41,595 nt of DNA, from the IMG/VR virus record IMGVR_UViG_2541047952_000001; one strand, given 5' to 3'. Position numbers and translations under genes: made by a program. How positions within the stretch are numbered: the stretch's first letter is position 1; each line of letters opens with the position of its first letter. This document shows, piece by piece, positions 4,628 to 31,199 of the stretch. The notes beneath the pieces were generated by a model that worked only from the letters and a program-made list of their open reading frames with translations, ran no database searches and was not told the DNA's origin. The stretch is from a virus. Lineage: Duplodnaviria > Heunggongvirae > Uroviricota > Caudoviricetes.

Positions 4628-5857
4628 TCAACCACCAACGCTACCTTTCCCCACCAGCGCTTTAATGGCAGAGGTGTCTTCCAGGATACAGTCAAAACGA
4701 TGGAAGGCCAGAAAACCGGTCTGATCATATTCCGCGTAACGCTCAACCAGACGTTTAAGAATCATGTATCGCACACGACGGATAATGAAGCGATCAAAGT
4801 CACCACAGAACATGAATTTTTTACCCGCCCCGATATCATCAATTTCCTGATCAATGACATACGGTACATTCAACACTGAAGCAGGTGCCACACCAACAAT
4901 ATCCGGCAACCATAAAGGGCGTCCCTGACCGTCTTCCATCTCACTGATCAGTTTCAGCGTATTATCGTTAAACGCCAGGCGGAATTTCGGCCCGCGACGA
5001 TATGCAGGATCAATGCTGTGTTTCAGAGCCAGAATTTCCTGCCACTTCACCGTATTTACCGCGGCAGTCTGTGTTGTGCCGGTCACAGATGCGACCAGCC
5101 CTTTGGGTTGTTTAGGCGTACCAGCACCAGTTCCCTGAATCAGATAACGGGCTTCACCACGACCAATACGTTCAGCAATGCGACGGGCAAGATAAGCGTC
5201 CATATCGATCGCGCTGTCCTGCAGCAACTCATTAGACACACGAATGATTTTCGATGTCATTTTGAGCGCCCCAAGACTTCCCATACCGAAATCGGTGTCT
5301 TCTTCACCGGCTTCTTCATTTTCGCCCAGCAGAACACCAACTTCGGAAGTACCATCAGCTGTTGCCCACTCCATAGTGCGACCGTCAGAAGTGGTCAGAA
5401 TCTGCGCCACACTGGCGATGCCACCGTAGGATTTCATCTTCTCAACAACTTTCGCCAGGAATGTTTCTGGTACGGTATATCCGCCCTTTTCATCCTGAGC
5501 TACACCCTGGGCACGAAGTTCACGCAACGCCTTTCGTTCTTCTGATGTCAGCTCACTGGCACCGTGACGCATCCACTTATCAAAAACCTGAGCTCGTTTC
5601 TCATCCTGTTGCGAATTGTTTTCCGGATCAAGATTCTGACGCTGCTCTTCCTCATTGCTTTCAATGTACGCCTGATCCTGACGACGCAGTTCTTCTTCGC
5701 GTGCAATTCGTTCATCAAGCGCTTCCAGTTCGGATTTTGCTTTGTTCCACTCAGTGCGCTGCTCTTCCGTCCATGCGTTATCACCAATTTTTTCATTCAG
5801 GGCGCGCATGTCAGTTGCGATAGTATTACGTTTCTGTTTCAGTTCATGCAGTTTCAT
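4628..5857 (-). CDS. major capsid protein, HK97 fold, with N-terminal delta (scaffold) domain
   Basis: 409-aa ORF with a charged coiled-coil N-terminus (MKLHELKQKRNTIATDMRALNEK...EELRRQDQ) then a capsid-like body; follows the prohead protease. Confidence 0.85.
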   Translation of the reverse strand: MKLHELKQKRNTIATDMRALNEKIGDNAWTEEQRTEWNKAKSELEALDERIAREEELRRQDQAYIESNEEEQRQNLDPENNSQQDEKRAQVFDKWMRHGASELTSEERKALRELRAQGVAQDEKGGYTVPETFLAKVVEKMKSYGGIASVAQILTTSDGRTMEWATADGTSEVGVLLGENEEAGEEDTDFGMGSLGALKMTSKIIRVSNELLQDSAIDMDAYLARRIAERIGRGEARYLIQGTGAGTPKQPKGLVASVTGTTQTAAVNTVKWQEILALKHSIDPAYRRGPKFRLAFNDNTLKLISEMEDGQGRPLWLPDIVGVAPASVLNVPYVIDQEIDDIGAGKKFMFCGDFDRFIIRRVRYMILKRLVERYAEYDQTGFLAFHRFDCILEDTSAIKALVGKGSVGG

Positions 5858-5867
5858 GATGTTTCCT

Positions 5868-6470
5868 TTACGCGTTAAGAAGGGTCAGGACGCGTTCACG
5901 CGCCATACGTTGATTAATGGCTTTCTGTAGCGCGCCGCTGTTGCGCGCCTCCTGCCATGCTTTCATGGAGCGAACAGCCGAGTCAGCCTCCTGATAGGCA
6001 GGATATGTCACAGGACTGACATCCAGCAGACGGGAAAAGCGGGTTATCTCGCGAATAACAACCCCGTCCTCATCCTGATACCACTCCTCACCGTCACGGG
6101 CGACACGGAAAGCGAAAGATGACTGGTTAATATCTCCACGTTGCATCGGGGCCAGCACCAGATCACGAATGGTCTGTGTCTCCGGAGCCTGGATGTCATA
6201 GCGTAATCCGCGCTCATCAACTGAAAGATTCAGCGTGCCTGCTGCACTACGCCCAAGAATAAAATTAGGATCGTGGTTAAACAGTGCGCGTACATCATCA
6301 CCAAGCACATCGTCAAAAGCGCCGGGCCGGATGATTTCGCGGAATGAACCGAATATCAGCTCAGAACGACAGTCAAACACCGATCCATAACCGATAATGT
6401 GCGCCGGGTTATCGTCATGCCTCTCAGCACGCACCTCACCGCTGTAACAACGGATTTCACGGTCATTCAT
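5868..6470 (-). CDS. prohead protease (HK97 family)
   Basis: ORF between portal and capsid genes. Preferred start is MNDREIR at 6470, which has a GAGGGA RBS; the ORF track offers 6527. Confidence 0.75.
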   Translation of the reverse strand: MNDREIRCYSGEVRAERHDDNPAHIIGYGSVFDCRSELIFGSFREIIRPGAFDDVLGDDVRALFNHDPNFILGRSAAGTLNLSVDERGLRYDIQAPETQTIRDLVLAPMQRGDINQSSFAFRVARDGEEWYQDEDGVVIREITRFSRLLDVSPVTYPAYQEADSAVRSMKAWQEARNSGALQKAINQRMARERVLTLLNA

Positions 6471-7689: not shown

Positions 7690-7840
7690 GCGTCCCCCTT
7701 CTGGCCATAGCCAGTGCGCCCACCAGCAGTAAAGCACCGGACAAAATCAGAGCCGGAGCCATACCAAACTGCAGGTAAACCCCGCACGTAAGCAGGCCAA
7801 AACCAGCCAGCCCGATAACATCAGCAATTAGTGATTTCAT
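7679..7840 (-). CDS. small hydrophobic protein (53 aa) between large terminase and portal
   Basis: Hand-translated [53 protein letters not shown]. Its ATG overlaps the terminase stop (ATGA) and its stop overlaps the proposed portal GTG; two predicted hydrophobic segments. Confidence 0.3.
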
Positions 7841-9570
7841 AGAATTAAGAGATCATCGTCCGGATCAAGAGATGAGAGGAAATCGTCAGGTTCTTTGAGC
7901 ATTGCCCGACCGATCGTCATAATCAGTGCAACCGCACCATCGATTTTGTTTTCCGCCTGCTCCTTGACGGGCTTCACTAAATCATCGTTACCTGGCATGT
8001 TTTTGCCGACCACATTGCCGATACACCAGGTCATGATGGGATTGCCGTCATGATGAAAGCGTCCCGATTCAATCGCTGCTTCCAGCTCTTTCATCGGATC
8101 GGACATATTGGCGAAGTTCTGGACGATAGTGACGGGATTCAGATCTTCATCAGCAAGGTCATGTGACAGCCCGGTCGCCCCGAAGGGGTCGATGGGTGAC
8201 TCACTGACCGGGCTGATTTTGTTCGCCGCTTTGGCCTCCTCGAGGATGTAGCGATAATCCACCTCTGCACCATCGGTAACGGTCAGGACGCCCATTTCCA
8301 CCCATTTCTGAAAGCGTTCGGCTGTCCGTCTATCTTCATTTTTCTCGACGCTGTACACCGTGTCATACGGTACCCAGAAGCGCGGGGCCACACTGTAGTA
8401 ATGCGTTTTACCGTCAATCTCGCGGGTATAAAGTCGCGCCATGCTGTTCATATCCAGCTTACGCGCCAGGTCAAAGGCCAGAATGCACGGCTGCCCCTCG
8501 AACTGCTCAAGGGTCAGTGATTTATCCTCGCAGCTCTGCCAGCTCACCAGGTTGAAATACGCCGAACGCGCCGACACCCAGATATTGAGGTGTTTTGTTT
8601 TAAAGACGTTTGCCAGACGGGCGTTATTTTTCGCACGCTGCTGCTGACTTAACAAAAATTCGCGATAAACCGACACGCCAATATTTGGATTGGCTTTTTC
8701 CAGCACCTGCGGGTCGGTCCAGTCGTCACCTTCATCAACGGTATAGATGATCCCGAACAGTTCATCGTTAGGCACCGAGCCGTTGAGCATCTCGATGACT
8801 TCCCGCCGCTTGTCGTAGCACGGCCCCTCAATGTTGTACCCGGCGGTGGTGATGGCCCACATCAGTGGCTGACGTCGCGCCCCCATCCCGGTAAGCATTG
8901 TGGTATAAAGCGCATCGGTGGCATGCTCGTGATATTCATCAACCACGGCACAGTGGGGCGATGAACCATCACCTGGGTTGCCGATCAGCGGTTCAAACCG
9001 CGCGCCATCCTCCGGACGGTTCATGTTTGAGGCGTTAACCTCAATCCCGAACGCTTCCGTCAGCATGGGTGTGCGTTTACACATCAGTCGTGCCGGACGA
9101 AAGACTTCCCATGCCTGTTTCTCCGTCGTGGCACCGGAATACACTTCCGCGCCGAACTCGTTATCACAGGCAAAACAATACAGGGCAACACCGGCAGAGA
9201 TTGCCGATTTGCCGTTCTTACGGGGGATTTCGGTATACACCTCCCGGAAGCGGCGCAGCCGGGAGCCTTTATTGACCCAGCCAAACGCGCAGCAGATCAC
9301 AAAGAGCTGCCACGGCTCCAGCGTGATGGGCATCCGTTTGAATGCCCACTCACCCTTGGTGTGCGGCAACAGCTGAATAAATTTCGCGGCCCGTTCAGCC
9401 TGGTCCTTGTCGAAGCGGTAACGAAACGACTTACTTTTTTCCGCCATCAGGTCATCAAGATGGCGCTGGCAGGCCTGAATCACAAACTGGCAGGCCACAA
9501 TCTTTCCGCGCACGACATCACGGGCATACTGATTGGCAGCATTTACGTTGGGGTAAGATTTCCGGCTCAT
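7837..9570 (-). CDS. terminase large subunit
   Basis: 577-aa ORF ([23 protein letters not shown]...) downstream of the small terminase with an ATGA overlap. Confidence 0.9.
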
Positions 9571-10061
9571 GATTCGATGATTTTCAGAAACGGGTTAGTG
9601 GCTTTCTTCTGCCCCGCCAGGCCAATCAGACGCTGGCGGCTGCTGGGGTCGAGTCCGAGCATTGCCCCCGTGCTGCTCATCTCGGACTCCTGTTCTTTCT
9701 TGGCGGTCAGCTCCGGATTTTTGACCATGCCACCCATTGCACCGGTGATGGTGTTGCCCTGTCTGGCAATATTTTTCACGGCACGTCGCCAGAACTCATA
9801 GGCCACGCACCACCGCTCAAGTACCGCCAGGTCAGTCACGCACAGCAGGCCCTGACCGCAGAGTTCTTTGGTTGTCAGTTGCCACATGATCGTGGCGAGA
9901 GGGAGATCTTCTTCAGCGAACCACTCCGGTGGCTCAACACCTTTGATGGGCGTAAAAACAGGTTCATCTTTATTCAGGGCTCGCTTGCCGGGGTTTCCGG
10001 CCAGCGCCTTGCGCGCCGTTGGCTTGGGGCGACGCCCGGAACGCCCCGCCGTTCCAGCCAT
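9567..10061 (-). CDS. terminase small subunit (P27-family-like)
   Basis: Preferred start is ATG at 10061 ([18 protein letters not shown]...) with an AGGAG RBS; the ORF-track start at 10070 is a GTG. Basic N-terminus typical of small terminases. Confidence 0.75.
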
Positions 10062-10070
10062 ATGCGGCAC

Positions 10071-10186
10071 TCCTGGTTAAATTTCATTTTTCGCGGGTAT
10101 AAAAAAACGATGGGGCGGGCAGTCCGGAAGACGTCAGGTCACAGGTATTTGACCCGCCCCTCCCCTCTGGCAGTGGGAACTGGTTC
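10071..10186 (-). other. putative cos/packaging region with terminator-like structure
   Basis: Non-coding stretch between HNH and terS, where HK97-like phages place cos. Contains an inverted repeat GGGGCGGG...(about 34 nt)...CCCGCCCC followed on the reverse strand by a T-run. Confidence 0.25.
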
Positions 10187-10537
10187 TTACTTCAGCCGTT
10201 CACGGGCCGTCTTCGCCTTATGACACGGCCAGCACAAACTCTGCAGATTGCAGTCGGCATCAGTGCCGCCATGCGCTTTAGCGATGATGTGGTCAACGGT
10301 TTTCGCCTCACGCACCACACCAGCACGCAGACATAACTGACACAGGCCTTTGTCACGCTTCAGCACACGCACGCGGATAACATCCCACTTCGAACCATAA
10401 CCGCGCTGATGACGGGACTGACCTGGCTTGTATTGCTTCCAGCCTTCGCTTTTGTGTAGCTCGCAGTAGCCTGATGAATCGGTTGTCGTGTTGCGGCAGC
10501 CTCTTGCTCTGCAAGCCTTTGGTGTGCGTGGTGGCAT
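10187..10537 (-). CDS. HNH homing-type endonuclease
   Basis: 116-aa ORF with several Cys/His zinc-binding pairs (CRARGC...CELH...DHIIAKAHGG...CWPCH) directly upstream of terS. Confidence 0.8.
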   Translation of the reverse strand: MPPRTPKACRARGCRNTTTDSSGYCELHKSEGWKQYKPGQSRHQRGYGSKWDVIRVRVLKRDKGLCQLCLRAGVVREAKTVDHIIAKAHGGTDADCNLQSLCWPCHKAKTARERLK

Positions 10538-10734
10538 TGTCCGCCCTTCTGTTATGTGTTTTTTGCAGGGAGCATAGTAGTGCTCATGTTAAGCCATTAC
10601 GATGGATCCGCCCATTGTGATGACTATAAAAATGCTTGTAGACAGATTAAGTAGCATTTACTCAAAGACGACAGCGATATAGTATTTAGTTATAGAAAAT
10701 GTGAGCCACAACAATTCTGGAAATATTCTTTATA

Positions 10735-10763
10735 TTTTTACGTGGCTAGTGATATAAAATAGA
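10735..10763 (+). promoter_or_regulatory. candidate sigma70 promoter for the plus-strand moron
   Basis: TTTACG, 17-nt spacer, TAGAAT in a very AT-rich tract about 35 nt upstream of the 10796 start; RBS AAGGA before the ATG. Confidence 0.3.
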
Positions 10764-10795
10764 ATTTATTTTTCATCTGATAAAGGAAAGTATTA

Positions 10796-11146
10796 ATGAC
10801 ATTAACATTAATTGGTGGCCGTATTAAAGGTAATGGCGGTGATGGCATTAGAGTCGAGGCCGGTAATCCTTTAGATTTAGTCATAATAGGTACTGATATC
10901 TCTGAAAATGAAGGACACGGAGTCAACTATAAAGATAATATCCAGGCTCTTCATGCAGCAGGAATTAGAGCTGAAACGCCTCTGGAACAACTAAAGCAGG
11001 CATATGAAGAGCTGGTAAGTAGCAAAGCTACTACTGAACAAGAGCAGCTAACTGTATTTGATAGAATAGGGTTTACAAAATACCTATCTTATGGGGCAAA
11101 TATTGCTACGATATGTAGCCTTCTATTTCAGATCTTCAATAAATAA
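10796..11146 (+). CDS. hypothetical moron protein (116 aa), unknown function
   Basis: Only plus-strand gene inside a minus-strand late operon; AT-rich with its own promoter-like sequence. Gly-rich N-terminal segment (GGRIKGNGGDGIRVEAGN) and hydrophobic C-terminus (GANIATICSLLFQIF). Confidence 0.5.
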   Translation: MTLTLIGGRIKGNGGDGIRVEAGNPLDLVIIGTDISENEGHGVNYKDNIQALHAAGIRAETPLEQLKQAYEELVSSKATTEQEQLTVFDRIGFTKYLSYGANIATICSLLFQIFNK

Positions 11147-11153
11147 GATTAGC

Positions 11154-11189
11154 TTTGACATGGCTTTTGAGATTGTTAGCCATGTCAAA
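11154..11189. terminator. strong hairpin between convergent genes
   Basis: Perfect 11-bp inverted repeat TTTGACATGGC / GCCATGTCAAA with a 14-nt loop, between the moron stop (11146) and the 67-aa gene stop (11258). Confidence 0.35.
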
Positions 11190-11257
11190 TGCTCGCTTCC
11201 GATACTATACAAATTTGCTATATCTCATACACTCAGTGAATGACTGCTGTAATGCCG

Positions 11258-11461
11258 CTAGTCGTCGAGTTGCAACACACCGCGCTCAAGTGACTCTGAG
11301 TAGGCGATCAGTCCTGTGTATTCAGGGATAATCTCGCCATCTTCTGCTTCGAATTTCGGGATTGTCCCGGTGGTGATGGTGTACTTGGGCTGGCCATCTT
11401 CTTTTGCGAAGGCTGACAGGTCTTCAATCTGTTTTGCTGTAAGAACTACTGTCATGCTCAT
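11258..11461 (-). CDS. hypothetical protein (67 aa)
   Basis: Acidic small ORF downstream of the spanin genes; no family recognised. Confidence 0.4.
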   Translation of the reverse strand: MSMTVVLTAKQIEDLSAFAKEDGQPKYTITTGTIPKFEAEDGEIIPEYTGLIAYSESLERGVLQLDD

Positions 11462-11484
11462 TCCTCAGTTGTTAAAAAACCCCA

Positions 11485-11742
11485 CTATTGCGAGGATCGT
11501 GATTGCTCAATCGTTCTAATATCTTCTTTATCCCTGTTACACATTCCCAGCGCCCCCATCAGACTCACATTCAGCTCCAGACTGGCACCATACGTCAGCG
11601 GATTAGGTATAAACGGTACAGGAGTATCAGAAGTCAGGCTGGGTGGCAGTGGTGCCACCGGAACGCTCACGTAAACTGTCCGCGTACTTCCGCAACCGGT
11701 CAGCAGCGGCAGCAGGCACAGCACGTGAAGCACAATCATCAT
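11485..11742 (-). CDS. o-spanin (Rz1-like outer-membrane lipoprotein)
   Basis: Internal start MMIVLHVLCLLPLLTGC gives a signal peptide with lipobox LLTGC and a Pro-rich mature part; it begins in the +1 frame inside the Rz-like gene and extends past it. Confidence 0.5.
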   Translation of the reverse strand: MMIVLHVLCLLPLLTGCGSTRTVYVSVPVAPLPPSLTSDTPVPFIPNPLTYGASLELNVSLMGALGMCNRDKEDIRTIEQSRSSQ

Positions 11743-12019
11743 CCGCAACAGCCATTTTGATATCTTCCTGGGTTCTCTGTGACCCCAGTGCGATCTGCTG
11801 TTTTGCATGCTGGTTAGCCTCCAGAACTGTATTGACGATTTGCAGTGATTGCAGGACGTTATTGGTAATGACAGTTGCCGATTTGGCATTTTGTACAGCC
11901 TCATCAGCACGTTTCTTTTCGTGCTGATATTTGCTGTAGTAGTGGTTGGCAGACCAGATGAAAGAACCGATGACAGTAAAGAAGAATGCAGCGATAACCA
12001 ACTTATAGCTCAACTTCAT
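11627..12019 (-). CDS. i-spanin (Rz-like)
   Basis: 130-aa ORF with an N-terminal transmembrane segment (KLVIAAFFFTVIGSFIW) and a coiled-coil periplasmic part, directly after the endolysin gene. Confidence 0.7.
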   Translation of the reverse strand: MKLSYKLVIAAFFFTVIGSFIWSANHYYSKYQHEKKRADEAVQNAKSATVITNNVLQSLQIVNTVLEANQHAKQQIALGSQRTQEDIKMAVADDDCASRAVPAAAADRLRKYADSLRERSGGTTATQPDF

Positions 12020-12479
12020 TTACCACCCCACCAGCCTCTTTAAACCGGGCAATCAGATCACCGATTTTATGTTCATACTGACCGTAACCAGCACCCGGCA
12101 ATGAAGCCCAGATATTGCTGCAACGGTCGATTGCCTGACGGATATCACCGCGATCAATCATCGGCAAAGCGCCACGCTCTTTAATCTGTTGCAATGCCAC
12201 AGCGTCCTGACTTTTGGGAGAGAAGTCTTTCAGGCCAAGCTGATTACGGTAGGCATCCCACCAACGGGAAAGAAGCTGGTAACGTCCGGCGGCTGTTGAT
12301 TTGAGTTTGGGGTTTAGCGTGACAAGTTTGCGAGGGTGATCGGAGTAATCAGTAAACATTTCACCACCGACAATAACATCATAACCGTGGTTACGTGTCG
12401 GTTGTCGCCCGTTATCCGTTCCTTCTGACCATGCAACCATATCCAGGAAAGCTTTACGCTGGGAATTTAGTACCTGCAT
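12003..12479 (-). CDS. endolysin (lambda R-type lytic transglycosylase)
   Basis: 158-aa protein MQVLNSQRKAFLDMVAWSEGTDNGRQPTRNHGYDVIVGG...SLPGAGYGQYEHK, recalled as nearly identical to lambda R. Confidence 0.9.
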   Translation of the reverse strand: MQVLNSQRKAFLDMVAWSEGTDNGRQPTRNHGYDVIVGGEMFTDYSDHPRKLVTLNPKLKSTAAGRYQLLSRWWDAYRNQLGLKDFSPKSQDAVALQQIKERGALPMIDRGDIRQAIDRCSNIWASLPGAGYGQYEHKIGDLIARFKEAGGVVNEVEL

Positions 12480-12482
12480 AAA

Positions 12483-12833
12483 TTACTCCTTAGAGCCACC
12501 AAACTTGTTACCGATTACTCTCATTGCAGCCCCACGAATAGCATCGACACCGATCAACCCAACGCCACCACCAATGGCAACAGAAAGCGATTTAGGCCAT
12601 CCGACATACTCAAGAGCGGATGCAAAAGTCAGCGTCAGAGCGCCGCAGAGCAAAATCTCGAGCGTTTTTCGCTTCCAGCCACCACCACCGCCAAAATAGG
12701 CAATGCGCAAGCCAGCCATAACGATCGACATAATTACTGCGCCCAGCGGTGTGTCTCCACGCCACCAGCTCTGTAACAATTCAAGTAAGTCAGACCAGGA
12801 ATGAGGATCGTTATGCATTTTCATAATTCCCAC
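12483..12833 (-). CDS. holin (lambda S-like, three predicted TM segments; possible dual-start motif)
   Basis: 116-aa ORF directly upstream of the endolysin; N-terminus MGIMKMHNDPH has closely spaced Met codons as in holin/antiholin pairs. Confidence 0.75.
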   Translation of the reverse strand: MGIMKMHNDPHSWSDLLELLQSWWRGDTPLGAVIMSIVMAGLRIAYFGGGGGWKRKTLEILLCGALTLTFASALEYVGWPKSLSVAIGGGVGLIGVDAIRGAAMRVIGNKFGGSKE

Positions 12834-12911
12834 CTCCGGTTATCGGAAGTGCAACGAGTGAAGGGAAAGAAGCTGGTTATAGCGCTGAGTCGCAAAAGTT
12901 GCGTAGTGCAC

Positions 12912-12944
12912 AAAAAAGGCCGCCCACAGGCAGCCTCTTTTTAT
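12912..12944. terminator. hairpin flanked by A-run and T-run (bidirectional terminator-like)
   Basis: AAAAAA-GGCCGCCcacaGGCAGCC-TCTTTTTAT between the Zn-ribbon gene stop (12956) and the holin start (12833). Confidence 0.4.
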
Positions 12945-12955
12945 AATTCATTGAG

Positions 12956-13198
12956 TTAACAACATTTAAATGCTGGTGGTATAGAAGGTTTTTCACCAGA
13001 ACGACAAGCCGGACACCATGACTGAACGATATGCCTTCCGTCTCCCATATCCCTATAACCAAAGTCTATTGTTTTATAAAAAACGTGCACTCCGGCATCA
13101 GCAGAACATTTTGGGCAAGATTTATATTCAACGCCATCTTGTTCAACTTCTCGTGAATAACTTAATGACTGCTCACAAACAGAACAACGCTCCACCAT
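12956..13198 (-). CDS. small Cys-rich (zinc-ribbon-like) protein, first gene after tR'
   Basis: 80-aa ORF with three CxxC pairs (CSVC, CPKC, CPAC) and a terminal CC; RBS AGGAGAG; occupies the Q-to-holin slot. Confidence 0.5.
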   Translation of the reverse strand: MVERCSVCEQSLSYSREVEQDGVEYKSCPKCSADAGVHVFYKTIDFGYRDMGDGRHIVQSWCPACRSGEKPSIPPAFKCC

Positions 13199-13352
13199 AT
13201 ATGCTCTCCTGTTTTTGATAGAGATTTATGGGTAGCAATTCCATTCAAAAGAAACATTGAAGGGTGTCACTTTTTCAAAATGAGCGTAGCTGGCTGCCAG
13301 TTTTTTGTACAACACACTTTAAGGAAGGAGAGCCTTAAAAACACAATTGACA

Positions 13353-13380
13353 TCAATAAAAAACCGCTCGGTGGCGGTTT
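13353..13380 (-). terminator. tR'-like intrinsic terminator downstream of Q
   Basis: Reverse strand reads AAACCGCcaccgaGCGGTTT followed by TTTTTTATT, about 100 nt downstream of the Q stop. Confidence 0.55.
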
Positions 13381-13486
13381 CTTGAAGATTATCAACGGTA
13401 GACACACAAAGCCCATCGTTAGGAGAATCCTAACCAAATTTTTTGAAAAATGCAAGAATCATGTCGCCATCTTCGGCGAAAATCAT
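13381..13486 (-). promoter_or_regulatory. late promoter (PR'-like) and candidate Q-utilisation region
   Basis: Between the Q stop and the tR'-like terminator; contains the perfect palindrome GTTAGGAgaaTCCTAAC (13418..13434) and promoter-like hexamers on the reverse strand. Confidence 0.35.
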
Positions 13487-14266
13487 TTATCTCGTCACTT
13501 TTCTTAATTGCGCCTCAGCATATGCTTCTTCCTGCCAGCACTTTGTCACCAGTTTATCAATGACATCTGCATATCCTTTGTACCACTGATAATCCGTCAG
13601 GTCTGGTACCAGCTTCTGGACATGATGCCGCGCCAGTGTGGTTGGTAAACGGCTAAACCGATTTCCATTGCAACGCCCACAAATCTTATAAACAGGCGTG
13701 CCATGAAGCCGGGTCCTTTTTTCATCCAGGACAATACCTTTACCCTTACACCCTCTGCACGCTGTGCTGACTTCTCCCTTACCATGACAATGCTGACATA
13801 GTTCCTTCACCCACTCTTCCTTGATAACAGATTCCCCGCTTCTGGAGTGTTTCACCACTTCGCGCAATACATTATGAAATCCAGTACCAGCACAATGCTC
13901 ACAGCGAGCCTTACTTGCCGCAGACCTGGAATAATCAGCAAAGGCAAAATTCACAAGGTAAGGAATAATCTGTAGCCGGGTTTCTTCACTCAATTTATTC
14001 AATGTCGGGTTATCCAGTGCCATCGCGTAATTGAGCAGACCTTCAATCGCAAACTGAGGATCCTGAACACCAACTTTTGCCAGGAATAAGGCAAACCCAA
14101 GCGGTGCTTTCGACTGCACCATCCCCTGCGCAGCCATCACATCCGTAATTGTTAAACCACCAGAGCCTGTCGCCGGTGCGTCATCGCTCAATTTTGGAGA
14201 TTTTGGGGAGTAATATTTCGGTAAGGCTTCAAGGTTCATGCTCGTTCTCCACTTACGCCAGTACAC
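13487..14266 (-). CDS. late antiterminator Q (zinc-finger type)
   Basis: 259-aa ORF with Cys clusters (CEHCAGTG...CQHCHGKG...CRGCKGKG...CGRCNGN) directly upstream of PR'/tR' and the lysis cassette. Confidence 0.7.
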   Translation of the reverse strand: MYWRKWRTSMNLEALPKYYSPKSPKLSDDAPATGSGGLTITDVMAAQGMVQSKAPLGFALFLAKVGVQDPQFAIEGLLNYAMALDNPTLNKLSEETRLQIIPYLVNFAFADYSRSAASKARCEHCAGTGFHNVLREVVKHSRSGESVIKEEWVKELCQHCHGKGEVSTACRGCKGKGIVLDEKRTRLHGTPVYKICGRCNGNRFSRLPTTLARHHVQKLVPDLTDYQWYKGYADVIDKLVTKCWQEEAYAEAQLRKVTR

Positions 14267-26006: not shown

Positions 26007-27046
26007 AGGCTGAAGCATGGCGGGTCAGCAAACTTGGTGAAATACCTGATATAACGTTCGAGGAAGCGTGTGTCAGGTGGCTTGAAGAGAAAGCACATAA
26101 AAAATCACTGGACGATGACAAAAGCCGGATCGGATTCTGGCTTCAACATTTCGCAGGAATGCAACTAAGAGACATTACTGAATCAAAAATTTATTCAGCA
26201 ATGCAGAAAATGACGAACCGGCGTCATGAGGAAAACTGGAAACTCAGGGCAGAAGCATGCAGAAAAAAAGGGAAACCTGTTCCAGAATACACGCCAAAAC
26301 CAGCGTCCGTTGCAACGAAGGCTACGCATCTTTCATTTATAAAGGCCCTACTAAGAGCCGCAGAGCGTGAATGGAAAATGCTGGATAAGGCACCAATTAT
26401 TAAAGTGCCTCAACCAAAGAATAAACGGATCCGCTGGCTGGAGCCCCATGAAGCACAAAGGCTGATTGATGAATGTCCGGAGCCATTAAAGTCTGTTGTT
26501 GAATTTGCACTGGCAACAGGCTTAAGACGCTCGAACATCATCAACCTTGAATGGCAACAAATAGATATGCAGCGCCGGGTGGCATGGATAAACCCGGAAG
26601 AGAGTAAATCAAACCGCGCAATTGGCGTTGCGCTGAATGATACTGCATGTCGCGTATTGAAAAAACAAATCGGGAATCATCACCGTTGGGTATTTGTGTA
26701 CAAGGAAAGCTGTACCAAACCAGACGGAACGAAAGCGCCAACAGTAAGGAAGATGCGGTATGACGCAAACACAGCCTGGAAAGCGGCGCTGAGACGGGCT
26801 GGTATTGATGATTTCAGATTTCACGACTTGAGACACACCTGGGCAAGTTGGCTGGTTCAAGCCGGAGTCCCGTTGTCAGTTTTACAGGAAATGGGAGGCT
26901 GGGAGTCTATCGAAATGGTTCGTCGATATGCTCACCTTGCACCTAATCACCTTACCGAACACGCACGGCAAATAGACTCGATCCTGAACCCATCGGTCCC
27001 AAATTTGTCCCAGTCAAAAAATAAGGAAGGTACTAATGATGTGTAA
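25883..27046 (+). CDS. int: tyrosine integrase (prophage, thrW-targeting)
   Basis: 387-aa [25 protein letters not shown]... with C-terminal catalytic-region motifs ([10 protein letters not shown]...RRYAHL); stops 15 nt before the thrW 3' fragment. Confidence 0.9.
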
Positions 27047-27109: not shown

Positions 27110-27293
27110 ATGTTAATGCATTTTTAACTACTTGAGCAATCAATCAAAACAACATACTTTATATTATAAAACACCAAGTTATAGCAATAAACCCGTTGAT
27201 TGAAATTAACAAAAGTTGATGTTTATTCCCTCCATTTACTTACACCAGCAGTTACATTATTGTAAGACAGCAATTCTCAACTGGAGCCGAAAA

Positions 27294-28619
27294 ATGGCGC
27301 TTTCAAGACAAAAATTTACCTTCGAAAGACTTCGCAGATTCACCTTACCGGAAGGGAAAAAACAAACTTTTCTTTGGGATGCAGATGTAACAACCCTGGC
27401 ATGCCGAGCAACTAGCGGAGCAAAAGCCTTTGTATTCCAAAGCGTATATGCGGGGAAAACCCTTCGCATGACTATTGGCAACATTAACGACTGGAAGATT
27501 GATGATGCGAGAGCCGAGGCAAGACGGTTACAAACATTGATCGATACAGGGATAGATCCACGAATTGCTAAGGCTGTAAAAATCGCAGAAGCAGAATCCC
27601 TGCAGGCAGAATCACGTAAAACAAAAGTGACTTTCTCCGTCGCCTGGGAAGACTATCTTCAAGAATTGAGAACCGGTATCAGTGCAAAAACTAAACGCCC
27701 ATATTCTACTCGATACATTGCCGATCACATTAACTTGTCCAGTCGTGGAGGCGAAAGTAAAAAAAGAGGCCAAGGCCCGACTTCGGCTGGACCATTGGCT
27801 AGTTTGCTCAACCTGCCGTTATCGGAGCTAACCCCAGATTACATAGCAGCGTGGCTGAGTACAGAAAGGCAAAATAGACCTACCGTCACTGCTCACGCTT
27901 ATCGCCTACTACGTGCTTTCATCAAATGGAGTAATTATCAGAAAAAATATCAAGGGATCATTCCTGGCGATCTGGCACAAGATTACAACGTAAGAAAAAT
28001 GGTTCCCGTGTCAGCGAGTAAAGCTGATGATTGCCTGCAAAAGGAACAACTAAAAAGCTGGTTTAGTGCCGTGCGTAGCCTCAATAATCCTATTGCATCG
28101 GCCTATCTCCAAGTACTTTTGCTCACTGGTGCTCGGCGTGAAGAAATTGCGTCGCTTCGCTGGTCAGACGTAGATTTCAAATGGTCAAGCATGCGAATTA
28201 AAGACAAGATCGAAGGTGAACGTATCATCCCTCTCACTCCTTATGTTTCTGAATTGTTAAATGTACTAGCGCAATCCCCAAATTCTGACGTAAATAAGGA
28301 GGGTTGGGTTTTCAGAAGTAACAGTAAAAGTGGCAAAATTATTGAGCCGCGTTCAGCGCACAACAGAGCGTTAGTGCTGGCTGAGTTACCACATATCAGC
28401 CTTCACGGTTTACGTCGTAGTTTTGGTACTTTGGCCGAGTGGGTTGAAGTTCCCACTGGTATTGTTGCTCAAATTATGGGACACAAACCCAGCGCTCTTG
28501 CCGAAAAACACTATCGCCGTCGTCCGTTAGATCTGTTACGAAAATGGCACGAGAAAATTGAGACATGGATCTTAAATGAAGCAGGTATTACCATAAAAAA
28601 CAACGTTGATATGCGTTGA
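27294..28619 (+). CDS. P4-type tyrosine integrase of a second integrative element (CP4-6 IntF-like)
   Basis: Preferred start MALSRQKFTFERLRRF at 27294 with GGAG RBS (track: 27216); C-terminal HGLRRSFGTLAEW...KHYRR catalytic-type motifs. Confidence 0.85.
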   Translation: MALSRQKFTFERLRRFTLPEGKKQTFLWDADVTTLACRATSGAKAFVFQSVYAGKTLRMTIGNINDWKIDDARAEARRLQTLIDTGIDPRIAKAVKIAEAESLQAESRKTKVTFSVAWEDYLQELRTGISAKTKRPYSTRYIADHINLSSRGGESKKRGQGPTSAGPLASLLNLPLSELTPDYIAAWLSTERQNRPTVTAHAYRLLRAFIKWSNYQKKYQGIIPGDLAQDYNVRKMVPVSASKADDCLQKEQLKSWFSAVRSLNNPIASAYLQVLLLTGARREEIASLRWSDVDFKWSSMRIKDKIEGERIIPLTPYVSELLNVLAQSPNSDVNKEGWVFRSNSKSGKIIEPRSAHNRALVLAELPHISLHGLRRSFGTLAEWVEVPTGIVAQIMGHKPSALAEKHYRRRPLDLLRKWHEKIETWILNEAGITIKNNVDMR

Positions 28620-28735
28620 TTCCATTAAAAATCAACATATTACAAAATATCATCAACTATTGATCAAGATAGATTTTCATGTATCGTAATACACAGTTTA
28701 GTCAATGATACAGCAACTACACAGGAGATAAGCCA

Positions 28736-29176
28736 ATGGCAACCCCAGCAACTGTATCCATAGAACCCACTCTGGCAGCTATCAGAGCTCGCTGGTGTAT
28801 TAATTCAAGTAAAACAACTCAATCCTTTAACGATCCTGCGTCCATGGAAGAGGTTGTCGAGTATCTCAAAGGAACATACTCAGCTCTTCGCAAGTCTGTC
28901 GCATGCGCCAAACTGAAAATTTTACATCTTAAACAAAGAATGCAAAATGCTACTAACTTTCTCGCGCGTCTGATGTCATGTAAAAATCAGGCATCCAGAT
29001 CGCATCACAGTACGGCTAAATCAGCTAAAAGTGCCTTATCATCAGATTCAGGTGATGGTAGTGACCCCGACCCCGAGCCCGAAACGTTTCCTTCTGCCTT
29101 CATTACTACCCCTACTAATTCAATAATGCTTAAAGCTTTCTTTGCCAATATCTCAATCACTGAGGTGGCAAAATGA
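28736..29176 (+). CDS. hypothetical protein (146 aa, YagN-like)
   Basis: First cargo gene after the integrase, translationally coupled to the AlpA-like gene by a 4-nt overlap; acidic Ser/Asp-rich C-terminal region. Confidence 0.45.
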   Translation: MATPATVSIEPTLAAIRARWCINSSKTTQSFNDPASMEEVVEYLKGTYSALRKSVACAKLKILHLKQRMQNATNFLARLMSCKNQASRSHHSTAKSAKSALSSDSGDGSDPDPEPETFPSAFITTPTNSIMLKAFFANISITEVAK

Positions 29177-29397
29177 GCGCATTCAAACTCCCGGATACAT
29201 CTCAATCACAGCTCATTTCAACAGCTGAGTTAGCTAAAATCATTAGCTACAAATCTCAAACCATTCGTAAATGGCTTTGTCAGGACAAATTGCCTGAGGG
29301 GCTACCTCGCCCAAAACAAATCAATGGCCGCCATTACTGGTTACGTAAAGATGTCCTCGATTTTATAGATACATTTTCTGTACGAGAAAGTCTGTAA
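29173..29397 (+). CDS. AlpA-family HTH regulator / excisionase-like protein
   Basis: 74-aa ORF LISTAELAKIISYKSQTIRKWLCQDKLP...INGRHYWLRKDV, typical AlpA-type fold signature. Confidence 0.65.
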   Translation: MSAFKLPDTSQSQLISTAELAKIISYKSQTIRKWLCQDKLPEGLPRPKQINGRHYWLRKDVLDFIDTFSVRESL

Positions 29398-29515
29398 TAA
29401 ATTACAGATTTAATTTTATTGATTTATAGCGATGTTGCCCCGAGAAAAATGGGGCAACACTGAGAAATTTCAGATAGTAGTTTTATATTGAGATAACAAA
29501 GAGGTTTCCTTAAAA

Positions 29516-30370
29516 ATGTCTAATAGTGTTACTAATTTTGAGATGAGCAGCGTTCTACCAGGAAAAAAACCTTGTCAAGGCAAAAACAATGAGTCACAGG
29601 TAGTACAGACTACTCCCATAAAAAAACACTCAGTCACGTTCAAAAATCAATCTTCATTAGGAGTAATTGATCATTATGCCAGACTAACAAATAAATCTCA
29701 CTCTTCCGTAATAGCGGAAGTTGTGGATTTGGCTATCCCTATATTAGAAAAATGCAATCGTCATAACTGGTCAATAAATGAAATAAAAAATGACCTGTTA
29801 AAGTTCTCTATAAAAGAAAGCATCAATCGAAGCCGAGGTAAAACAGAAGTAACTCTGGAAGAGTACTGTTCGTTAATCTGGAAAACGAACATCATGAGTC
29901 CATTAAAAATCCCCATTGCAGATTACTTTCAACTGAACGCTAATGATGAATTCATGGGGAAAGATGAAAAAACAGTTATACGTGAAAGGCTATCCTCGCT
30001 AAGGGAAAATTACGATATGGAAAAAGCCATTTACATTTACAATCAAAGACATTTTGATGTAAAGCATCAAAGTGTCTCAGGATATTCAAACATTATTCTT
30101 ATTCATAGAACAACCTTTGAGGGTTATTACTTTGATGCCGGGCAGGCTCTACTCTTGTCAACATCCCAATTGATTATATTCGGGATAAATGAAGTTCTTA
30201 GAAGAAAGGGGATTGTTATGCCTTATCCGGTTGTTTGTTGGATTGATATTTACCATGTCAATGAAATGGTGGTTATGCTGCCAGTGCTCCGCAAAACAGA
30301 TGTTTCCAACCGTGTTAATGTACCGGATGACATCATTATAAACCCATACTCACAAGAGAGCAGAACCTAA
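29516..30370 (+). CDS. hypothetical protein (284 aa, YagM-like)
   Basis: AT-rich ORF; no recognisable catalytic motif; size equals my recollection of CP4-6 YagM. Confidence 0.5.
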   Translation: MSNSVTNFEMSSVLPGKKPCQGKNNESQVVQTTPIKKHSVTFKNQSSLGVIDHYARLTNKSHSSVIAEVVDLAIPILEKCNRHNWSINEIKNDLLKFSIKESINRSRGKTEVTLEEYCSLIWKTNIMSPLKIPIADYFQLNANDEFMGKDEKTVIRERLSSLRENYDMEKAIYIYNQRHFDVKHQSVSGYSNIILIHRTTFEGYYFDAGQALLLSTSQLIIFGINEVLRRKGIVMPYPVVCWIDIYHVNEMVVMLPVLRKTDVSNRVNVPDDIIINPYSQESRT

Positions 30371-30396
30371 GAGGTAACAAAGAAGGACAAACAATT

Positions 30397-31095
30397 ATGA
30401 GAGGTAAAATACTACTTTACCAGTTAAAGTATCGCTGGCAATCACTCTCTATTTTTGGTTGTTTTTTATGCAAAATGACATTATTCAGGTATCAAAAAAT
30501 AATTTATGACACCGGAGTGCATCAGATGCGTTCATTTTTTTACACCATATGCAGTAGCGAACAGCAAGAAAGCATTACAGATCATCACTCACTTGCTGAG
30601 ATATGCCAAAAATTTAATATTCTACCTGAACATGTTGTGATCGAGCAGGTAGATATTAAAGAGGTTGTTTCAGAGCAACGTTTACTCAGACAATTGATTC
30701 ATCATGAAATGAACCGGCAGGACACGCTTGTCATTCCAGATCTAAGCTGTCTTGGCAGAACTGTGGAGGACTTACAGAATATTTTATTTTTTTGCCTTCA
30801 AAAAGAAATGTTTATCTACAGCTACCATCCAGCTTCAAGGATAGAGCCTTCTGCTGAAAGTTGCTTGTCTTTTTTGATTGCTCGTCAGGATACGATTGAC
30901 ATTCACAATCTGAAATCAACTAAAAGCCGATATCGACATGTTAAGAAGAAATTAGGACGAAAGGAGGGAAGCAAATACCGACGTGATATCACAATACTTA
31001 AGAAAGGTGGATTTACTCAGGCTGAGATTGCAAAGAAATTGAGTATCAGTTTATCGACTGTGAAGCGGCACTGGAATAACGGAATCATCGGTTAA
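30397..31095 (+). CDS. degenerate serine-recombinase-like DNA-binding protein (YagL-like)
   Basis: Resolvase-like layout: YTICSSEQQ resembles YARVSTxQQ but lacks the Arg; DTLVIPDLSCLGR resembles D.LVV.KLDRLGR; C-terminal HTH GFTQAEIAKKLSISLSTVKRHW. Possible internal start at 30526. Confidence 0.55.
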   Translation: MRGKILLYQLKYRWQSLSIFGCFLCKMTLFRYQKIIYDTGVHQMRSFFYTICSSEQQESITDHHSLAEICQKFNILPEHVVIEQVDIKEVVSEQRLLRQLIHHEMNRQDTLVIPDLSCLGRTVEDLQNILFFCLQKEMFIYSYHPASRIEPSAESCLSFLIARQDTIDIHNLKSTKSRYRHVKKKLGRKEGSKYRRDITILKKGGFTQAEIAKKLSISLSTVKRHWNNGIIG

Positions 31096-31199
31096 TTCCA
31101 GAAGCTAATTGCAGAGTAACTTTTTAACAGCCATCACAGGCTGGGGCTACCTTCGTCTCAAATTTAGATGTTGGATAGGTATTATATAATGGCATTGTG

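Follow-up and report, generated by a model that had tools for sequence, protein, structure and literature searches.

Morons are defined as DNA that is extra with respect to related phages, deviates in GC content, carries a promoter and a terminator of its own, and is expressed from the repressed prophage (PMC3594210). In this report, we describe a 668-bp cassette (10589..11256) that is very probably an element of this kind. It belongs to the IMG/VR record IMGVR_UViG_2541047952_000001, whose whole stretch of 41,595 nucleotides was analysed and is referred to hereafter as the window, and which represents a lambdoid, SfV/HK97-like prophage of Escherichia coli. The cassette carries a single gene, a 116-aa open reading frame (ORF) situated between the lysis and the DNA-packaging genes, and its product belongs to a previously undescribed protein family, in which a right-handed beta-helix of two to four rungs is followed by a helical domain of about 70 residues. 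The type of element is already known and would be a textbook moron; what is new is an uncharacterised, minimal two-rung beta-helix family that keeps a strict slot and a strict orientation across very different phages, in at least three enterobacterial genera.

Comparison with described morons

By position, the cassette resembles bor of phage lambda, a single small gene and the classic example of a moron expressed in the lysogen (PMC3594210). Both occupy the same slot in the same orientation: they follow Rz/Rz1 directly, precede cos and the packaging genes, and run against the late operon. However, Bor is a secreted outer-membrane lipoprotein of a different fold, whereas the 116-aa protein, whose N-terminus reads MTLTLIGGRIKGNGG, has on direct reading neither a signal peptide nor a lipobox cysteine. 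Homology to Bor was not found either, with no match to the Pfam family Lambda_Bor at E <= 1 and an hhalign probability of 0.06%.

The second system to be considered is taiEcA of phi80, which is expressed in the lysogen, is reduced when Q is expressed, and has an adjacent antidote, atiEcA, in the late operon (He et al. 2024, PMC11364771). Like the cassette described here, taiEcA is a divergently oriented moron that precedes the packaging module and interrupts the Q-controlled late operon, an arrangement named "non-contiguous operon" (PMC11364771). In contrast, TaiEcA (phi80 orf63) is a protein of 204 aa, which is also present in phage-inducible chromosomal islands (PICIs) and P4 satellites, where the 116-aa family was not seen. 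The two proteins show no homology (BLASTP E = 9.5; hhalign probability of 0.1% with the family profile), and the 67-aa protein encoded beside the cassette is unrelated to AtiEcA (E = 3.8).

A third precedent, gp15 of HK97, is a small single-gene moron that brings about superinfection exclusion and protects the lysogen (PMC3594210). It shares with our cassette the HK97-type prophage, the foreign composition and the presence of its own transcription signals, which are a feature of gp15 and only candidates here. Slot and hydrophobicity set the two apart: gp15 is an integral inner-membrane protein encoded within the tail operon, whereas the hydrophobic helix of the 116-aa protein does not reach the usual transmembrane threshold and forms part of a helical bundle in the model. 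The junction between the lysis and packaging genes of lambdoid prophages, which earlier yielded Bor and then Tai, would thus hold a third, unrelated cargo in the 116-aa family.

A discrete cassette shared by different prophages

The 116-aa ORF (10796..11146, plus strand) begins with an ATG and encodes an acidic product of 12.6 kDa and pI 5.1. An identical stretch is found in E. coli Res13-Sevr-PER07-33 (NZ_CP062811, 3840030-3840749), where RefSeq labels the plus-strand ORF as hypothetical protein WP_021574410.1. The preliminary description of this locus, made from the sequence, had pointed to a lone plus-strand gene among minus-strand late genes, and this is indeed the case, since all its neighbours from TerL to Q are on the minus strand; the genes sharing its strand include those of the CI-like repressor (20176-20862) and the integrase (25883-27046). 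Its base composition is equally distinctive, with a GC content of 0.33-0.39 over 10550-11300, where the DNA on the left has 0.55-0.59 and that on the right about 0.46-0.52; the ORF itself has 38% GC and its flanks 47-55%.

The limits of the cassette emerge from its comparison, by BLASTN and MAFFT, with other prophages in which both flanks differ. Positions 10589-11256 are 87% identical to the loci L005 and L007, positions 10594-11215 are 84% identical to the locus L004, and the similarity to all three breaks off abruptly at both borders. This unit is made up of about 205 bp upstream of the gene, the ORF itself, and about 110 bp downstream, including a hairpin. In both the window and L005, the cassette adjoins on its right the stop codon with which the preceding late gene ends, and its left border is separated from the start codon of the HNH gene by 51 nt in the window and by 12 nt in L005. 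The prophages sharing the unit, which are HK97-like or lambda-like, are otherwise dissimilar: L005 and L007 have lysis cassettes unlike that of the window, and L004 is a lambda-like prophage with a GpA terminase, gpW, a portal_2-type portal and gpD. To judge from these alignments, the cassette is a discrete, horizontally mobile unit moving among prophages whose lysis and packaging modules are unrelated. A search for inverted or direct repeats at its two borders yielded only short, imperfect GCCATTAC/GTAATGCC-like matches, not beyond chance.

Two genes of the late operon flank the cassette and stay outside it. On the left lies an HNH endonuclease gene of the packaging module (10187-10537, minus strand; Pfam HNH, E = 5.7e-14, and RefSeq annotation), the last late gene before cos and TerS. 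On the right, between Rz1 and the cassette, there is a 67-aa gene (11258-11461, minus strand; PHROG 9518, E = 3.6e-37, function not assigned), whose own stop codon is the one touching the border. The latter is missing from the shared 668-bp unit, and unrelated genes take its place in other lineages.

The content of this junction varies among related phages. Phage vB_EcoM-720R4 has 100 bp between Rz1 and HNH, against 1007 bp (10538-11544) in the window, and the 1007 bp that it wants correspond to the cassette plus the 67-aa gene. Rz/Rz1 are likewise followed by HNH in SfV-type phages, and an unrelated minus-strand gene of 168 aa occupies the slot in phage vB_EcoM-689R6. The 720-bp region between the HNH gene and the 67-aa gene is rare, being present in 3 of 5426 complete E. 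coli genomes, and a scan of species-representative genomes found no relative.

A single slot across lineages

The position of the gene is conserved well beyond the range in which the cassette can be aligned. In all the lineages with a readable context (11 of 11, at 26-99% identity), the family gene stands between the last of the lysis genes and the packaging genes and runs against both. Giving for each the identity of its family member to the window protein, these lineages are the window clade in E. coli (the window protein itself, 100%), L004 (P0004, 81%), L005-L010 from Citrobacter (P0002, 90%), L013-L016, also from Citrobacter (P0027, a protein of 139 aa, 30%), L017-L019 from Enterobacter (P0022, 33%), and L020-L022 (P0021, 28%). 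They are completed by L023-L024 from Enterobacter (P0029, 30%), L025-L027 (P0030, 33%), L029 (P0005, 42%), L030-L032 (P0006, 43%) and L035 (P0010, 35%). On two short contigs, encoding P0007 and P0016, both neighbours are on the opposite strand and nothing more of the context is readable.

The surroundings of this slot vary widely. The packaging genes at these loci are of the HK97 type (TerS/TerL+HNH), of the lambda type (GpA, as GpA/DUF1441), or of the Terminase_6C or Terminase_3 type, and the lysis cassettes differ too, ranging from the lambda-type S/R/Rz to holin_3_7 + holin_8 with GH108 or GH19, and to u-spanin-like proteins. The low GC content of the gene is shared by the family, with 35-42% at 10 homologous loci against 46-56% in their flanks. 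An all-against-all BLAST of the neighbour genes revealed no partner or antidote gene conserved across lineages and, because no neighbour is conserved, the family is regarded as one of stand-alone genes.

A mini beta-helix followed by a helical domain

The close homologues of the 116-aa protein are 81-99% identical to it and all have 116 aa. With a profile built from them, an exhaustive HMMER search of 1.84 billion representatives (E <= 1e-3) retrieved 23 proteins, namely P0002, which is a close representative, 17 small ones (112-154 aa) aligning over their full length at 26-44% identity, and five large ones. Four of these five match mainly through the N-terminal repeats; a repetitive TPR protein was the only large one to match best through the C-terminal part, and was regarded as spurious. 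Searches with the single sequence were far less informative: Pfam and NCBIfam gave no match, a search of PDB sequences returned only noise, and PHROGs gave only a weak match to phrog_36866 (function not assigned). A literature search on the accession, the PHROG id and keywords found no paper on this family.

The Gly-rich N-terminal segment noticed in the preliminary description corresponds to two parallel beta-helix (PbH1) repeats, with the motif GNGGDGIRV...ENEGHGVNY, which form a mini beta-helix domain over residues 1-47 (10796..10936, plus strand). Pfam Beta_helix (PF13229) matches 15 of 20 family members (best E = 5.4e-8), even though the window protein alone falls below threshold, and the family profile finds the beta-helix of the mannuronan epimerase AlgE4 among PDB sequences (E = 1.5e-6). 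The window protein has two such rungs, and members across the family have two to four. They share the motif N-G-x-D-G-I-x-I and the predicted three-strand rungs with the known PbH1 proteins, such as PF13229/NosD, the AlgE C5-epimerases and phage tailspikes. However, those enzymes and spikes have about 7-15 rungs, against two here and up to four in the family, and the 116-aa protein lacks a catalytic groove and a secretion signal, while its helical domain was found in no larger protein.

This C-terminal helical domain, delimited on an alignment of 20 sequences, spans residues 48-116 (10937..11143, plus strand), about 70 aa including the hydrophobic last helix, and is recognised by the conserved motifs AG..ETP, A.EEL, IGF.K and GAN(I/L)ATI.SL..QIF. 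The AlphaFold2 (AF2) model obtained with the same 20-sequence alignment has a predicted local distance difference test score (pLDDT) of 88.3. It places strands at residues 2-11, 18-22, 27-36 and 43-47, that is, two rungs within residues 2-47, followed by helices at 48-55, 63-76, 81-90, 93-96 and 103-114 with a pLDDT of 80-93. With five near-identical sequences as input, the pLDDT of the N-terminal domain was below 50. J-domain-like PDB matches of the family profile were dismissed, as they are sub-threshold and lack the HPD motif.

The hydrophobic character of the C-terminus, likewise noticed earlier, is confirmed by Kyte-Doolittle maxima of 1.28 over 19 residues and 1.59 over 15. Across the family, the 19-residue maxima range from 0.7 to 1.9 and are mostly below 1.6, and the last helix, with a pLDDT of 80-91 in AF2, is taken as part of the helical domain. 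Thus, a membrane-spanning segment, while conceivable, is not supported. The function, given as unknown in the preliminary description, has been narrowed by the homology and structure searches to that of an uncharacterised mini beta-helix family, and no further.

Candidate transcription signals and probable moron status

The gene needs a promoter of some kind of its own, since all genes upstream of it run in the opposite direction. The candidate found by scanning is a putative sigma-70 promoter, TTTACG-17-TAGAAT, with 9 of 12 matches (10737..10765, plus strand), and weaker counterparts (8-9 of 12, with spacers of 16-19) occur at the aligned position in L004, L005 and L007. The ribosome-binding site (RBS), AAGGA, was read directly at 10783..10787 on the plus strand, 8 nt before the ATG, as had been reported, and is kept as AAGGAAA or AGGAAA in L004-L010. 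Downstream, 8 nt past the stop codon, an inverted-repeat search located a hairpin (11154..11189, plus strand) with arms at 11154-11165 and 11178-11189, a stem of TTTGACATGGCT/AGCCATGTCAAA and a loop of 12 nt. The preliminary description was right about its position and its perfect pairing, but the stem has 12 bp and not 11. The hairpin has a free energy of -20.6 kcal/mol (z = -4.1 relative to shuffled sequences); it is kept in L004 and L005 with one mismatch beside the loop, and analogous hairpins of unrelated sequence follow the stop codon in L020, L023 and L025, while none does in L013 and L017. An Rfam search of 10400-11500 gave no match.

Three of the results on these signals speak against the explanation proposed below. 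The TTTACG-17-TAGAAT motif is where it had been reported, but its match is no better than chance, with two promoter-like sites found against 2.8 +/- 1.9 expected in shuffles. The simple scan detected no suitably placed promoter in most of the distant lineages. The hairpin, on direct reading, lacks a U-tract, and the terminator scan does not report it; it is not a canonical intrinsic terminator, but probably a structure that marks or stabilises the 3' end.

Taken against the definition given above, the cassette is additional DNA at a point where the genes of related phages adjoin, has a deviant composition, and has spread horizontally as a unit; a candidate promoter is present at a kept position, though not above chance level, and the place of the terminator is taken by a stable 12-bp hairpin. 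Its earlier classification as a moron, which was based on orientation and AT-richness, is therefore strengthened by the extra DNA, the foreign composition, the mobility of the 668-bp unit, the purifying selection on its product and the slot shared with bor and taiEcA, whereas its promoter, statistically unremarkable, and its terminator, a non-canonical hairpin, are candidates only.

Apart from these considerations, the candidate -35 region (TTTTACGTGGCT) resembles the hairpin arm TTTGACATGGCT, which contains a perfect TTGACA, at 10 of 12 positions (10736-10759 against 11166-11189). This resemblance is not conserved in L004 and was dropped as probably due to chance.

Proposed role and alternative explanations

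The mechanism that we propose begins with transcription from the weak candidate sigma-70 promoter, situated some 30 nt ahead of the RBS, giving a transcript that would end at, or be stabilised by, the 3' hairpin. Its orientation would allow the gene to be expressed from the repressed prophage, and converging late transcription would damp it after induction; both steps are suggested because of the antisense orientation and the precedent of phi80 taiEcA. We consider expression in the lysogen reasonably probable. The product would be cytoplasmic, either soluble or attached peripherally to the membrane, and would be of benefit to the lysogen, most likely through interference with superinfecting phages, with the variable beta-helix recognising the target and the constant helical domain oligomerising or providing the output. 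Such an anti-phage role is suggested by the position, the orientation, the mobility, the rarity and the combination of a variable N-terminal with a constant C-terminal domain, and it is a tentative proposal, possible rather than probable. The explanation as a whole, in which moron status and lysogen expression carry most of the weight, we hold to be fairly probable.

A more elaborate form of the anti-phage idea, unlikely in our estimation, is that of a stand-alone anti-phage family whose fast-evolving two-rung module serves as a recognition or templating surface, whose conserved helical domain, with its amphipathic C-terminal helix, provides the output by oligomerisation or membrane attack, and which is silenced by convergent late transcription upon induction of its own prophage; this silencing would account for the confinement of the family to one slot. 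In that case, the beta-helix module might stack end-to-end with itself, or onto the beta-helical tail fibres or spikes of the invader, and poison their assembly.

Several observations count against the anti-phage role. The arguments for it are confined to position, orientation, mobility and evolutionary pattern, and within the latter, the difference in the ratio of nonsynonymous to synonymous substitution rates (dN/dS) between the N-terminal domain (0.27-0.78) and the C-terminal domain (0.06-0.18) rests on few substitutions. PADLOC-DB v2 gave no matches for the window protein or for any of the 20 family members, and a fold search returned no significant match beyond the repeats, with none for the helical domain and none to any effector. 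In contrast to Tai, the family was not encountered in satellites, PICIs or defence islands, and neither megablast nor tblastn, the latter with the window protein and two distant members, found a match in 50,697 INPHARED phage records, so that no cultured phage in this collection carries a member.

Four other explanations have to be weighed against this proposal. That the ORF is a decaying fragment of a beta-helix protein, such as a tailspike, a depolymerase or an epimerase, or else a chance ORF in an AT-rich spacer, has next to no probability and is effectively refuted. Its length and both of its domains are kept by over 20 diverged family members, in which the start codon M1 is invariant, and the dN/dS of the whole gene, 0.11 against L005 and 0.38 against L004, is below 1, which points to a product under purifying selection. 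ORFs of at least 116 aa appeared, in any of six frames, in only 30 of 5000 shuffles of the cassette. The preliminary description had named homology to a structural phage protein, as in a gene remnant, as the finding that would overturn it; instead, although the N-terminal repeats are akin to those of tailspikes, the whole architecture is conserved in diverged proteins and, save for the spurious TPR protein, the exhaustive search gave no large protein matching the C-terminal domain. The same constraint bears on the idea of a selfish or addiction-type cargo, that is, a toxic small protein or hitch-hiking element without benefit to phage or host. The rarity of the cassette in complete E. coli genomes (3 of 5426), its high mobility, and the lack of a partner gene or a recognisable function would all suit such a cargo, but a C-terminal domain under strong purifying selection, with the dN/dS of 0.06-0.18 given above, an architecture retained down to 26% identity and the absence of a conserved antitoxin-like neighbour make it highly improbable.

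The slot itself invites two further explanations. The gene strictly adjoins the last lysis gene in 11 lineages, with a convergent gap of only 0-4 bp in L017 and L029, and its C-terminal helix, which is conserved, amphipathic and hydrophobic, might make contact with membrane proteins; an accessory of the lytic cycle tied to lysis, such as a regulator of holin or spanin timing or a guard against premature lysis, would explain its constant place after the lysis cassette. However, the gene cannot be co-transcribed with the lysis genes because it is antisense to the late operon, related phages manage without it, and the lysis partners vary by lineage, with none specifically conserved, so that we regard this function as quite unlikely. 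Less probable still is a Bor-like factor of lysogenic conversion or virulence at the cell surface, affecting serum resistance or envelope properties. It has in its favour the position and orientation of lambda bor, the frequent binding or processing of polysaccharides by beta-helix repeats, and the glycosyltransferase-like genes adjoining the family gene in three lineages, but the protein, with no signal peptide, lipobox or homology to Bor, is predicted to be cytoplasmic, and two rungs are far below what a catalytic beta-helix needs. The moron expressed in the lysogen, with an anti-phage role as its tentative function, is thus the reading we prefer. A single gene of 351 bp in its native 668-bp cassette is well defined and could be screened for defence or exclusion at low cost, and it offers a further test case for the idea of the non-contiguous operon, in which an antisense place in the late operon times the expression of the cargo; should the product prove inert or merely accessory, the element would otherwise be an ordinary moron.

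Other features of the window and of related prophages

The remaining late genes around the cassette are all on the minus strand. The packaging side comprises TerL (7837-9570) and TerS (9567-10070), and the lysis side Rz1/Rz (11485-12019), the endolysin (12003-12479) and the holin (12483-12833), with the Q-type antiterminator at 13487-14266. Between the holin and Q, there is a second AT-rich stretch (12834-13486; GC 0.39-0.44), which carries an ORF of 80 aa (12956-13198, minus strand). Its product has two CxxC pairs and looks zinc-ribbon-like, without a Pfam match, and the ORF is in the usual cargo position downstream of Q.

In the related prophages, P0029, P0030 and P0006 adjoin the same minus-strand pair, which encodes a GT2-like glycosyltransferase of 485/486 aa and a protein of 196 aa. 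This pair lies between the family gene and the packaging genes (L023, 3893-5925; L025, 3895-5927; L030/L031, 3296-5325, minus strand), and its presence beside three alleles may mean that they are functionally linked or simply that these prophages have a phage backbone in common. In L030-L032, a plus-strand gene of 180 aa (5416-5958; Pfam PF27329 Rv1289) is found 43 bp upstream of P0006, and the antisense unit there consists of two genes. The Enterobacter prophage at L023 also carries, between its holin genes and Q but in the other orientation, a gene for an SMC_N/AAA_15/AAA_21 ATPase of 657 aa (9205-11178, plus strand), which looks like a defence-type gene in the other classic moron slot.

Elsewhere in the window, a minus-strand gene (20845-21765) in DNA of 39% GC encodes a protein of 305 aa that ends in a BRCT domain (Pfam E = 1.4e-6). 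This gene converges on that of the CI-like repressor (20176-20862, plus strand; HTH_3 + Peptidase_S24), the ends of the two overlapping by 18 nt, and may be another cargo or defence gene of the prophage. Finally, two tyrosine integrase genes stand in tandem on the plus strand (25883-27046 and 27216-28619) and are followed by AT-rich DNA (28700-31100; GC 0.37-0.42), in which a gene at 30397-31095 weakly matches resolvase/HTH; the tandem integrases together with this AT-rich DNA suggest a second integrative element beside the prophage.

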